Positions 1,483 through 8,332 of a stretch of 64,000 nt of DNA are shown here, piece by piece. Under the pieces are notes generated by a model. That model saw only the letters and a program-made list of their open reading frames with translations, ran no database searches and was not told the origin of the DNA. The DNA is from a virus: positions 1 to 64,000 of the IMG/VR virus record IMGVR_UViG_3300043409_001462. One strand, given 5' to 3'. Made by a program: the position numbers and the translations under genes. Positions within the stretch are counted from its first letter, which is position 1. The number at the start of each line of letters is the position of its first letter.

Positions 1483-2442
1483 ATGGCACATATGATTGAA
1501 TCCCTGAATGGCGTCGCTCAAATGGCTTACGCTGGCGACGTTCCGTGGCATGGTCTCGGCACCAAGGTTCCTAACGACCTGACCCCCGAGCAGATGCTTG
1601 ATGCGGCTGGTCTCAACTGGACCGTCGAAAAGGTTCCTGCCTACGCTAACGTAGCTGGTCAGAACGTAGCTATCGGACAGTCGGCTCTTGTCCGCTCTAT
1701 GGATAACAAGATCCTCGACGTTGTTTCTGACGACTGGAATCCTGTACAGAACCAGGAAGCGTTCGAGTTCTTCAACGACTTCGTAGCTGCTGGTGATATG
1801 GAAATGCACACGGCTGGCTCCCTCTGCGACGGTAAGATCGTCTGGGGTCTTGCTAAGGTTAAGGAGTCGTTCTCCCTGTTTAAGGGCGATCAGATTGATT
1901 CCTACCTGCTGTTTTCTAACTTCCACAAGTACGGTCATTCTACCGACGTTCGCTTTACGCCTATTCGCGTAGTGTGTAACAATACGCTGACTCTGTCGCT
2001 TAACTCTAAGGTTGAGCAGATGGCTAAGATCAGCCACCGTAAGGTATTCAACCCTGACGATGTGAAGGGTATGCTCGGTATTGCTCACGACAAGCTTGCT
2101 AAGTACAAGGATATGGCTGCGTTCCTTGGTTCTAAGCGTTACAACGACGAGAATATCGTTGAGTACTTCTGCCGTATCTTCCCTGTTTCTGGCTCTAACG
2201 AGAACAAGAAGAAGGAAGTTTCGAAGAACGCTGAATTGGCTCTTGACCTTCTCGAGACTCAGCCTGGTGCTGAATACGCTCCTGGTACGTTCTGGCAGGC
2301 TTTCAATGCTGTCACCTACTTGACCGATCACTTGTACGGTCGTAGCGCTGATAGCCGCCTGCAGTCTGCTTGGTATGGTTACCATAAGGGTGTCAAGACC
2401 AAGGCTCTCGAGACTGCGGTCGAAATGGCGGAGGCTGTGTGA
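1483..2442 (+). CDS. DUF932 family (TIGR03299 phage/plasmid-like) protein
   Basis: Motifs MAYAGDVPWHGLG, AAGLNWTV, PVQNQEAFEFF, TPIRVVCNNTL, GTFWQAFNAVT. Confidence 0.85.
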   Translation: MAHMIESLNGVAQMAYAGDVPWHGLGTKVPNDLTPEQMLDAAGLNWTVEKVPAYANVAGQNVAIGQSALVRSMDNKILDVVSDDWNPVQNQEAFEFFNDFVAAGDMEMHTAGSLCDGKIVWGLAKVKESFSLFKGDQIDSYLLFSNFHKYGHSTDVRFTPIRVVCNNTLTLSLNSKVEQMAKISHRKVFNPDDVKGMLGIAHDKLAKYKDMAAFLGSKRYNDENIVEYFCRIFPVSGSNENKKKEVSKNAELALDLLETQPGAEYAPGTFWQAFNAVTYLTDHLYGRSADSRLQSAWYGYHKGVKTKALETAVEMAEAV

Positions 2443-5199: not shown

Positions 5200-5431
5200 A
5201 ATTGATGACACACTCCTCGATAAGCTTATCGTTGATACGCTAAAGCGAGATTATATCTCTCAGCAGAACGATATTGCTCGGCTGCTAGGTAAGGCAGTTC
5301 CTCTTCAACCTTTCGAGAAAGAGGATCTTTGGATGCATAAAGAAACTGCTGAAGGTCTTGCAATCGTTCTTCGGTACTATATGTATCGCCCTGATGCTGA
5401 TGCTTTTATTGCAGAGCATACGTATCCATGA
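5189..5431 (+). CDS. hypothetical protein
   Basis: AAGGA RBS before ATG 5189; packed in operon. Confidence 0.65.
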   Translation: MQFEIDDTLLDKLIVDTLKRDYISQQNDIARLLGKAVPLQPFEKEDLWMHKETAEGLAIVLRYYMYRPDADAFIAEHTYP

Positions 5432-5637
5432 TTACTCGATTGGATCCTCCTATGCCGATCATGACCCCGAAGGGTCGTGCTCTTGCTCATTTTCTTATTG
5501 ATTATGGTCCTGAGCACGACCTGATGTGGGTATGTTTTCAAGATGATACTGGTGAATGTTGGACCTGGGAAAATGCTCATATTAGAGCTAGAGTAAATCA
5601 AACATTAGGTAGAAATCAAATTTCAAAAATAACTTGA
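5428..5637 (+). CDS. hypothetical protein
   Basis: ATGA overlap with previous gene; IDYGPEHDLMW...TGECWTW. Confidence 0.7.
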   Translation: MITRLDPPMPIMTPKGRALAHFLIDYGPEHDLMWVCFQDDTGECWTWENAHIRARVNQTLGRNQISKIT

Positions 5638-5667
5638 CTTTCACTAGATGTTCCGCTATACTAAATA
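5634..5667 (+). promoter_or_regulatory. sigma70 promoter for tmRNA/tRNA, with overlapping late-like CTAAATA
   Basis: TTGACT (5634-39), 17 nt spacer, TATACT (5657-62) continuing as AAATA. Confidence 0.8.
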
Positions 5668-5668
5668 C

Positions 5669-5976
5669 ATTGCTTAGTTGTTGAAACGTAAGGAATAGAC
5701 GATTCGGACTCGGGGGCAGTACCCGACGCCTCCACCATAAGGAAATTAACATGGAAAAGGTACAAGCATATCTATTATTTACGATGCTGTTTTTCTTAGG
5801 TATGTATCTCTTAATATATTAATTTCTTTATGATGGGGGCGAAATAGGCTCGACGGATTGTAGTAAAGTTACGAAGAGACTAAGTAAACTCGTAAATGCA
5901 AACGATAACAATGCATCTCGTTTGGCTCTAGCAGCCTAACATGCGTCCGAGGGGAACGTGGAAACAGAATCCCCTC
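5669..5976 (+). ncRNA. ssrA: circularly permuted two-piece tmRNA (alphaproteobacterial type); tag ANDNNASRLALAA*
   Basis: Acceptor piece ends with T-arm tcggg-GGCAGTA-cccga, CGCCTCC-A-CCA (5710-5737). Intervening segment 5738-5834. Coding piece starts GGGGGCG (5835-41) and pairs with CGCCTCC including G3.U70. Resume codon GCA at 5898 after TAAAT, frame to TAA 5939. 3' hairpin gagggga/tcccctc. Outer ends are approximate. Confidence 0.92.
5751..5822 (+). CDS. putative 23-aa hydrophobic peptide MEKVQAYLLFTMLFFLGMYLLIY inside the tmRNA intervening segment
   Basis: AAGGA RBS at 5739-43, ATG 5751, TAA 5820-22; single TM-like helix. Confidence 0.5.
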   Translation: MEKVQAYLLFTMLFFLGMYLLIY

Positions 5977-5987
5977 AATTCTATCAA

Positions 5988-6064
5988 GGTTCCTTAGCTC
6001 AGCTGGATAGAGCAACGGATTTCTACTCCGTGGGTCGAGGGTTCGAATCCTTCAGGAACCGCCA
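5988..6064 (+). tRNA. tRNA-Arg (anticodon UCU)
   Basis: GGTTCCT/AGGAACC acceptor stem, D-arm, acgga-TTTCTAC-tccgt anticodon arm, GTTCGAATC T-loop, encoded CCA. Confidence 0.95.
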
Positions 6065-6099
6065 TATTATGTGTGTTTAACAAACGAAAAGGAAAAAAT

Positions 6100-6636
6100 A
6101 TGAAGCGTACATTCACAACTCTTGCTATTCTTGCTGCTGCAGTAAGTTTTGCTGCTGCAGCGGATCTTCCTAGCAAGAAGATTCCAACTCCTCCAGCTCC
6201 ATTGTTCACCCAGCTTAATAACTACGCTGGTGTTAATATTGGTATGGATACCGCCGATCATACTGTATACTCAGGCGGTATTGCAGTTGGGACAAATGTC
6301 CTTCCATATCTTGCAGTAGAAGCTGCATATGATTTCGGATACCAGAAGGACAAGATTAATGGTAAGCGTGAAATGCAGAACGAACTATTCGTTAATGCAA
6401 TTCCACAGTACAAGATCCCAGGCATGGATGTAACTGCCTATGTTCTTGGTGGTGTTGGATACGAGTGGAGTTCTGTTAAGAAAAATCATGCTTTGTATAA
6501 CGTAGGTGGTGGTGTTAAGTACGACTTTGCTCGTAACTTTGATGTCGATGCTCGCTATCGTTATATCGATTCTCTTGACGAAAAGTTTAAGGTTGAAGAC
6601 AATCGCTTTACTCTTGGTGTGAACTACAAGTTCTAA
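6100..6636 (+). CDS. outer-membrane beta-barrel protein (Omp25/RopB/OmpA-like)
   Basis: Signal peptide MKRTF...AAA|ADLPSKK, Pro-rich linker, amphipathic beta strands, C-terminal GVNYKF. Confidence 0.85.
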   Translation: MKRTFTTLAILAAAVSFAAAADLPSKKIPTPPAPLFTQLNNYAGVNIGMDTADHTVYSGGIAVGTNVLPYLAVEAAYDFGYQKDKINGKREMQNELFVNAIPQYKIPGMDVTAYVLGGVGYEWSSVKKNHALYNVGGGVKYDFARNFDVDARYRYIDSLDEKFKVEDNRFTLGVNYKF

Positions 6637-6901: not shown

Positions 6902-7106
6902 CTCATTTATTGAAGACATAGAAAAAATTCACCGTACCAAGAATATGGATTACATCGACGCTGTAGTTATGTGGTGTGAAAAAAACAAATTAGAAGTTGA
7001 ATATGCTGCTTCCTTAATAAAGAAAGATCCAGCTATTAAAGGTAAGATCCAAGTCGAAGCTGAGAATTTAAATATTTTGAAACGTGGTGCGAGGTTACCG
7101 ATATGA
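6879..7106 (+). CDS. gp33: late promoter transcription co-activator gp33
   Basis: FIEDIE...YIDAVVMWCEKN...IQVEAENLN matches the gp33 pattern; synteny with gp59 and gp32. Confidence 0.8.
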   Translation: MNMIQVNSSFIEDIEKIHRTKNMDYIDAVVMWCEKNKLEVEYAASLIKKDPAIKGKIQVEAENLNILKRGARLPI

Positions 7107-8332
7107 AAACATACATCCTTTATATTGATCAAGAAAAGTCTATCGAATATGCTAAAGACTGTAGAGAAACAGCTGTTTCTTTTGGTCTTAAAACATTTAT
7201 GCATGAAGGTCTTTTTGGTAAACAAAATAGAGAGCTTACTCGCAGGACAGGATTGAATATTCTTACAACCGAATATTCATCAGAGTATTGCGGAACTGTT
7301 GGTCATATTGAAATTTGGAAATCAATCGCACAGTCGGGTGAAATTGGTGTTGTGCTTGAACACGACTGCGTAGTTATGGGCGATTATAGCAAGCTTACTG
7401 TTGGAGATGGAGAAATTCTTTTCCTCGGTCCACGTATGTTCCATAGATCTCACTACGAGTTTCCTGTTGACGAAGAAGTTGATTATTACGATGTAAACCA
7501 TTATAATGGTGCTCATGCATATATGATCACTCCGAATACTGCTGCGATGCTTCTTGCAGAGCTTGATCGTATCAAGATGATCCTGATGCCTATCGATGGA
7601 TTGCTTGGTCTCAAGAACAAATTTAACATGAAGTTGAAGACGGTTGATCCTGCGTTTGTAATTTCTGAGATTGGTACTCATCGTAAGTCGTTCAATTTCG
7701 ATCAGCCTGACACAACCAATCGCAAATACTTCCCTAAATTTTTGAAGGGTGTACGAGATCGTGTTTCGTTGCCTCCAATCGCAGAATACAAGTTCACGAC
7801 TGATTGGTTTACCGAGCATATTCCACACTGGCTTGAAACTTTCAAGATAGCCAATCTTAATTTTGAAGATAAAATTGATGTTCTTGAAATTGGTACGTAT
7901 GAAGGTAGATCTACATGTTGGATTCTTGATAACATGTTGCTTAATATTGACAGTCGTATGGATGCAATCGACTCATTTTTGGAAGATACAAAGCTGTACG
8001 AAGCTTTTGTAAAGAATATTGCTATTGCTAAAAATCCAGAAAAGATGAAGATGTGGGCTGGTGATAGTCGAGTGTATCTTCCGATGCTTTTAAATATTGA
8101 GAAAAAATACGATTTCATATACATCGATGGATGTCACAAAACAGAAATTGTTATCATCGATGGATTGTGTGCATATCATCTTCTAAAGGATAATGGTGTA
8201 ATTATCTTCTCGAATTATGATTACGAAGAAGAAGGCCAGCTTACTGTTAAGCCAGCATTGGAAAAGCTAGAAAAAATGCTACCAATCAAATCAGTCTTGA
8301 CAGGTTTACAGTATTCGTATATGAAGAAATAA
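7103..8332 (+). CDS. glycosyltransferase family 25 fused to SAM-dependent methyltransferase (Methyltransf_24-like)
   Basis: N-terminal GHIEIWKSI, VLEHD and GAHAYMITP (GT25); C-terminal VLEIGTYEGRS and YDFIYIDGCH (class I MTase). Confidence 0.75.
   Translation: MKTYILYIDQEKSIEYAKDCRETAVSFGLKTFMHEGLFGKQNRELTRRTGLNILTTEYSSEYCGTVGHIEIWKSIAQSGEIGVVLEHDCVVMGDYSKLTVGDGEILFLGPRMFHRSHYEFPVDEEVDYYDVNHYNGAHAYMITPNTAAMLLAELDRIKMILMPIDGLLGLKNKFNMKLKTVDPAFVISEIGTHRKSFNFDQPDTTNRKYFPKFLKGVRDRVSLPPIAEYKFTTDWFTEHIPHWLETFKIANLNFEDKIDVLEIGTYEGRSTCWILDNMLLNIDSRMDAIDSFLEDTKLYEAFVKNIAIAKNPEKMKMWAGDSRVYLPMLLNIEKKYDFIYIDGCHKTEIVIIDGLCAYHLLKDNGVIIFSNYDYEEEGQLTVKPALEKLEKMLPIKSVLTGLQYSYMKK

Follow-up and report, generated by a model that had tools for sequence, protein, structure and literature searches.

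A probable membrane-peptide gene in the excised spacer of a phage permuted tmRNA

The permuted tmRNA locus

The window, that is, the whole stretch of 64,000 nucleotides analysed here, covers the opening 64 kb of a T4-like virus record of 173 kb. ARAGORN and Rfam call a permuted alphaproteobacterial-type tmRNA gene at 5630–5979, followed by a tRNA-Arg gene, and covariance models score the tmRNA at 124.7 bits for RF01849 (cut-off 50) and 108.7 bits for RF04321 (cut-off 47). The order of the gene is the permuted one, with the T arm and the acceptor 3′ strand with its CCA upstream of the acceptor 5′ strand, and both the G3·U70 pair and a tag frame ending in ALAA-type residues are present. Because the CCA occupies 5735–5737 and the acceptor 5′ strand starts at 5835, the intervening segment (IVS) between the two pieces comprises the 97 nt from 5738 to 5834. 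The features of the locus are as follows.

5634–5662, plus strand: putative sigma-70-type promoter of the tmRNA (TTGACT-17-TATACT, 10/12 match)
5669–5737, plus strand: tmRNA acceptor piece (5′ end approximate)
5710–5726, 5727–5733, 5734 and 5735–5737, plus strand: T arm, acceptor 3′ strand, discriminator and CCA, respectively
5736–5749, plus strand: 5′ arm of the closing stem, purine-rich, containing the Shine–Dalgarno (SD) motif AAGGA at 5739–5743
5738–5834, plus strand: IVS, 97 nt, 25% G+C, a swappable cargo slot
5751–5822, plus strand: 23-codon ORF (ATG at 5751, TAA at 5820–5822), an orphan
5791–5798, plus strand: second, internal anti-SD that can pair with 5738–5745 in nascent RNA (z only −1.6, may be chance)
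5819–5832, plus strand: 3′ arm of the closing stem, containing the stop codon (5820–5822) and an anti-SD (5825–5830); also serves the coding piece as its RNase P leader (PMC3985003)
5835–5979, plus strand: tmRNA coding piece, with the acceptor 5′ strand at 5835–5841 (G3·U70) and a terminal hairpin
5898–5939, plus strand: tag frame within the coding piece
5988–6064, plus strand: tRNA-Arg(UCU), likely co-transcribed; syntenic in loci L236 and L237

In relatives, the tmRNA promoter is overlapped by a T4 late-promoter-like TATAAATA. Neither an SmpB gene nor an RNase III gene was found in the phage genome, so processing and function of the tmRNA would have to rely on host proteins. T4-type late coactivator, helicase loader and ssDNA-binding genes follow a few kilobases downstream. 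Directly after the tRNA-Arg gene, an outer-membrane beta-barrel-like gene with a signal peptide (6073–6636; weak NCBIfam match) keeps its start in L236 and L237. The 69-aa ORF at 5428–5637 has no PHROG match but at least 260 relatives in viral contigs, with a tmRNA gene adjoining in only 4 of 80 loci examined. A 409-aa ORF at 7103–8332, also without a PHROG match, looks by eye like a glycosyltransferase–methyltransferase fusion.

Reading frame and closing stem of the spacer

An earlier note on this DNA had described an AAGGA-7-ATG start and a complete 23-codon ORF inside the 97-nt IVS, and all of these coordinates hold (IVS, 5738–5834; AAGGA, 5739–5743; ATG, 5751; stop, 5820–5822). AAGGA at a spacing of 6–9 nt is the usual RBS of this phage, found in 13 of 14 cases in long genes; here the spacing is 7 nt. 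The ATG is position 13 of the IVS and the stop codon finishes 12 nt short of its end, a layout shared with at least eight unrelated IVS ORF families. The encoded peptide has a charged N-terminus and a hydrophobic stretch of 17 residues (7–23), with a best 17-residue Kyte–Doolittle mean of 2.2 and one predicted membrane helix, in agreement with the single-helix appearance noted earlier. In dinucleotide shuffles of the IVS, an SD with a start and an ORF of at least 23 codons arose with P = 0.00065, a value that rose to 0.025 when both stem arms were held fixed. The joint chance of an SD-led ORF and a membrane-type stretch is 0.002–0.006, and hydrophobicity given an open frame has P = 0.03 from base composition alone. 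As read from the sequence, the excised spacer probably carries a tiny gene for a predicted membrane peptide. Elsewhere in the genome, the only other AAGGA-led short membrane-peptide ORF encodes 33 aa and lies outside the window (G000 106731).

Homolog searches with the 23-aa peptide returned no match in Pfam, PHROG or NCBIfam, by exact look-up, in the phage's own genome, by tblastn of a phage collection or with a degenerate N-terminal pattern across metagenomes. IVS-shaped patterns run on metagenomes and viral contigs likewise found no homolog and matched other families instead, and 50 related virus records yielded none, a weak test without a positive control. Syntenic loci, retrieved via the upstream gene or the tag sequence, included near kin with the same tag and with mature tmRNA parts 87–95% identical to the window; in L236 and L237, the tRNA-Arg and the beginning of the downstream gene are shared as well. 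The 11 distinct IVSs of these near kin have a similarity of 0.41–0.56 to the window IVS, compared with a shuffle mean of 0.55, and an SD-led ORF is absent from all 11. Conservation of the RBS, start and ORF among related phages, which the earlier note had proposed as a check, is thus contradicted by unrelated, ORF-less spacers in near-identical tmRNA genes. Because the near kin lack the peptide, it is dispensable for the lineage. Judging from its anatomy only, the peptide most likely serves as an accessory factor that the phage can do without, inserting in the host inner membrane, where it would modulate a host membrane protein or superinfection.

The ends of the IVS region form the 14-bp stem proposed in the earlier note, with arms at 5736–5749 and 5819–5832 and one G·U pair (5741·5827), in both the MFE and centroid folds. 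The stem joins the acceptor helix through A5734–U5834 and a C·A mismatch, extending that helix over both RBS and stop (z −5.8 for 5728–5842). The enclosed loop was ruled out as a structured RNA, having no folding signal of its own (z −0.2). A stem of this kind is present in 81 of 82 unselected viral IVSs of at least 40 nt. Across 87 distinct viral arm pairs, the register is fixed and shows strong covariation, with a Watson–Crick fraction of 0.87, as opposed to 0.48 for swapped partners and 0.17–0.37 for slid registers; in bacterial IVSs, the register is weaker and variable. Because nearly all long viral IVSs have the stem, with or without an ORF, it did not evolve to lock an RBS, and we rejected the idea that it is special to the 23-codon ORF. 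It is best read as mainly a maturation clamp rather than a dedicated switch; RNase P and 3′-end processing are the proposed maturation route for permuted precursors (PMC3985003).

Conserved IVS ends supply stops in two frames in 83/90 and 71/90 cases and in the third frame, which the 23-codon ORF uses, in 16/90. A stop in or just past the 3′ arm is therefore largely automatic, and its burial in the stem is not informative by itself. The claim that the processing stem locks the RBS fared better in part: every position of the SD is predicted to be paired, in the finished precursor as well as in the excised IVS, but the stem is general to viral IVSs rather than dedicated to an RBS. In growing transcripts, the SD is predicted to be mostly open at transcript ends of 5760–5780, partly masked near 5800 and shut from 5830. 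Predicted SD accessibility rises from 0.04 to ~0.7 once the excised IVS is trimmed to 5824–5826, which removes 8–10 nt from its 3′ end. An SD lies in the 5′ arm of 11/24 ORF-filled IVSs versus 7/66 others, counts that include related, non-independent sequences. Median stem energies are −12.7 kcal/mol for ORF-type and −15.8 kcal/mol for ORF-less IVSs, with the window stem at −12.0 kcal/mol, a comparison confounded by G+C content and SD-selected sampling.

The IVS as a cargo slot in viral tmRNA genes

Viral IVSs have a median length of 90 nt (range 4–464), whereas the bacterial median is 34 nt, and an SD with an ORF covering at least 60% of the IVS occurs in 7 of 100 viral and 0 of 116 bacterial cases. 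The loops are diverse, with 62 families among 77 viral IVSs. Many viral IVS ORFs begin 10–18 nt inside the IVS and finish at the 3′ arm. Pooled dN/dS for multi-member cargo ORF families is 0.06–0.53 versus 0.82 for an overlapping frame, the pairs being non-independent; several of these families are selected, and many are membrane peptides. One such family, of 28–30 aa, first surfaced via a DNA pattern that placed no selection on the downstream frame; in a protein-only search, the 30-aa family lay inside an IVS at 63 of 63 loci. A second membrane-peptide family has 145 loci within an IVS and one outside. For at least six cargo families, copies outside an IVS were seen as well, in five cases within ~170 nt of one, which suggests capture of neighbouring genes. 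Single IVS families are found on differing tags and even on differing acceptor types, a pattern that suggests exchange by recombination in the conserved flanks. The viral IVS is therefore a long, swappable cassette, often with small ORFs under purifying selection. Since selected sister cargo families occupy the slot, it can be translated; by the sequence evidence, a protein-coding IVS appears plausible in the window and real in relatives.

Cargo of other kinds was also observed. The 464-nt IVS of L094 is filled by a gene for a 131-aa HNH endonuclease (1999–2391, minus strand), which could drive IVS exchange; in L041 and L132, related genes lie free-standing close to tmRNA genes. In L143 (1855–1959), L071 and L025, the end codons and stop of the ORF lie in the acceptor 5′ strand, past the RNase P site, and one family of this type has a dN/dS of 0.19; cleavage would convert these ORFs into non-stop messages, the tmRNA's own substrate. 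In L021, L159 and their relatives (IVS of 157–186 nt), the stem-buried SD opens a short frame with a dN/dS of 0.82, and a selected membrane-peptide gene begins further in with its own SD. IVSs of 256–304 nt in L146, L203 and L232 hold two tandem ORFs.

ORF-less IVS families can also span different tags (L002/L085/L370/L378, L065/L076, L086/L090 and L018/L020/L060). These shared IVSs show some compensatory changes, a multi-stem junction and, in L065/L076, a likely pseudoknot; no Rfam match for them was found in the loci scanned. They are possibly small RNAs of a new type carried in the slot. A median inner-loop z of −0.3 and the absence of an Rfam match made it less likely that ORF-less IVSs are structured RNAs throughout. 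The tag peptides of viral tmRNAs (L001–L119) vary widely in the middle, keep both ends and reassort against IVS families.

We also compared the 23-aa peptide with the 30-aa family. The two have the first three residues in common, which the search pattern had selected, and one gap brings further matches into line (Y-L, a T and two Y positions). The similarity is borderline, with P = 0.08–0.16 against the profile and P = 0.04–0.06 in gapped pairwise protein and DNA comparisons, and the conserved C-terminal tail of the family is missing from the 23-aa peptide. Similar stem arms were rejected as proof of homology because unrelated ORFs can lie between almost identical SD-bearing arms, as they do in L181 and L216. 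The 30-aa family itself keeps the stem but varies in its SD, with about one-third of members lacking the SD core. On sequence grounds, homology is a serious prospect but falls somewhat short of an even one, and we did not file the peptide in this family.

Interpretation and known systems

We modestly favour the interpretation that the ORF is a passenger gene in the IVS slot, translated from the nascent precursor and silenced as the processing stem closes. A stem of ~12–14 bp in a fixed register closes almost every long viral IVS, and IVS contents are exchanged between otherwise near-identical tmRNA genes. The stem would clamp both halves of the tRNA-like domain across the long insert for host RNase P and 3′-end nucleases; recombination within the conserved tRNA-like flanks would exchange the cassettes, and small genes nearby could be captured. 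For ORF cargo, the purine-rich 5′ arm would serve also as the RBS. Ribosomes would load on the nascent transcript from the tmRNA promoter ahead of synthesis of the 3′ arm, and the message would be silenced and destroyed once the stem closes and processing sets in, so that each transcript would yield a short burst of translation. Such a shut-off would be a by-product of the processing stem, tolerated through the weaker stems of ORF-type IVSs. In the modelled folds, the internal anti-SD may mask the SD once 5798 has been made, in which case the translation window would be very short.

It is rather unlikely that the arrangement is a selected switch, with tmRNA processing gating a toxin-like peptide or with translation of the peptide blocking maturation. 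Such a switch might operate, for example, if 3′ trimming of ~8–10 nt after RNase P cleavage freed the SD and spared the stop codon, an analog being the activation of hok/aapA-type type I toxin mRNAs by 3′ trimming. The placement of the anti-SD (5825–5830) downstream of the stop suits such a mechanism, as do the predicted opening of the SD on trimming to 5824–5826, the association of a 5′-arm SD with ORF-filled IVSs, with the same caveat of non-independent sequences, and the retention of the stem in the 30-aa family although the SD varies. However, the stem is universal, ORF-less spacers included, and an SD core is missing from about one-third of the 30-aa family. In other families, the stop is a terminal TGA or lies past the RNase P site, so that trimming or cleavage would leave non-stop messages; because stop positions differ between families, no single gating logic fits the slot. 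The earlier note likened the peptide to a type I toxin in size and hydrophobicity, but it has no toxin family match and no cationic C-terminus, and a consensus scan found no minus-strand promoter-like site, as expected for an antisense antitoxin, across or downstream of the ORF.

Two further explanations assign the frame little or no present function. It is unlikely that the ORF is a captured gene now silent or decaying, locked in the stem and rapidly degraded like the S23p ORF of Coxiella 23S rRNA. The full pairing predicted for the SD in both the finished precursor and the excised piece would fit this account, as would the orphan status of the peptide, the loss of the conserved C-terminal tail if it is kin to the 30-aa family, and the Coxiella precedent, reported as untranslated in vivo (PMC4990558); yet SD, spacing, start, frame and stop are all intact, and purifying selection acts on the sister cargo families of the slot. 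More improbable still is that the ORF arose by chance in a neutral, A/U-rich spacer selected only for its closing stem. Arm-fixed shuffles do yield an SD-led ORF of equal length in 2.5% of cases, IVS starts are often TAA(G/A), which is near an SD, the ends hold built-in stops, U-rich codons favour hydrophobic residues, and such cases are expected when many windows are scanned. Against this stand the low joint probability once the membrane stretch is included, a high prior for true ORFs in the IVS slot and an arm that deviates from the viral consensus at precisely the position of the SD (G in 8/87 arms), with a matching partner base.

Beyond the passenger gene itself, a broader generalization is possible but doubtful: in aquatic T4-like phages, the IVS may be a general expression socket, whose RBS and stops would come from the stem and whose small genes and RNAs would be brought in by recombination; tmRNA folding and maturation would, under selection, set the time of their translation, with a membrane-active peptide as the cargo here. 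The IVS of two-piece tmRNAs is usually regarded as a linker that is thrown away, and its contents are missed or masked by gene callers. If the cargo is translated, the precursor of a ribosome-rescue RNA doubles as an mRNA, and a phage stable-RNA promoter drives a hypervariable cassette of small RNAs and unannotated microproteins, many of them membrane-bound. With IVS cargo, the competition between RNase P processing and translation on one transcript could also be studied in a simple setting. Because the window peptide is an orphan, the value lies in the slot more than in its 23-aa member.

The host gene resembles known permuted alphaproteobacterial-type tmRNAs (RF01849, RF04321), a group to which the tmRNAs of Melnitz (PMC9004378) and other aquatic T4-like phages belong, in its order of acceptor piece, IVS and coding piece, its G3·U70 pair, tag frame and upstream promoter, and its position shortly upstream of the late-transcription coactivator gene. 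It differs from the permuted tmRNAs of bacteria, whose IVSs are short and never held a spacer-filling SD-led ORF in our sample. The paper on Melnitz describes a two-piece tmRNA in aquatic phages and does not mention IVS cargo (PMC9004378), and in a 2025 tmRNA database paper, the only IVS contents noted are a tRNA gene and a repetitive element, with no ORFs (PMC11915505). A full-text literature search, in which the older key literature was only partly covered, found no description of IVS cargo ORFs.

Type I toxin mRNAs (Ibs, Hok, AapA and TisB) encode very small hydrophobic peptides, and their SD is masked by long-range 5′–3′ pairing. The window ORF resembles them in its tiny hydrophobic peptide with one predicted helix, its masked SD and possibly its internal anti-SD, a matter of resemblance only; it differs in having no cationic tail and in owing its masking stem to tmRNA processing. 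Group I introns in tmRNA and rRNA genes can harbour homing-endonuclease genes (PMC11915505), which are likewise protein genes nested in a removable part of a stable RNA, and one viral IVS (L094) holds an HNH gene. Unlike these introns, the IVS is not self-splicing and its ends are not ligated; in the window, moreover, the cargo is not a nuclease, the loop is unstructured and there is no Rfam intron match.

A further parallel is the IVS of Coxiella burnetii 23S rRNA with its S23p gene, an ORF in a segment closed by a stem and cut out of a stable-RNA precursor whose ends are not rejoined (PMC4990558). ORFs in excised stable-RNA segments are thus already known from 23S rRNA, while the IVS cargo slot of tmRNA is apparently undescribed. 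Here the host RNA is a tmRNA rather than 23S rRNA, excision is expected by RNase P and 3′-end processing rather than by RNase III, and the 23-aa peptide does not match the four-helix S23p. Whereas S23p is one family, reported in Coxiella as decaying and untranslated (PMC4990558), the viral slot carries many unrelated, swappable small ORFs and RNAs, with purifying selection on its cargo.
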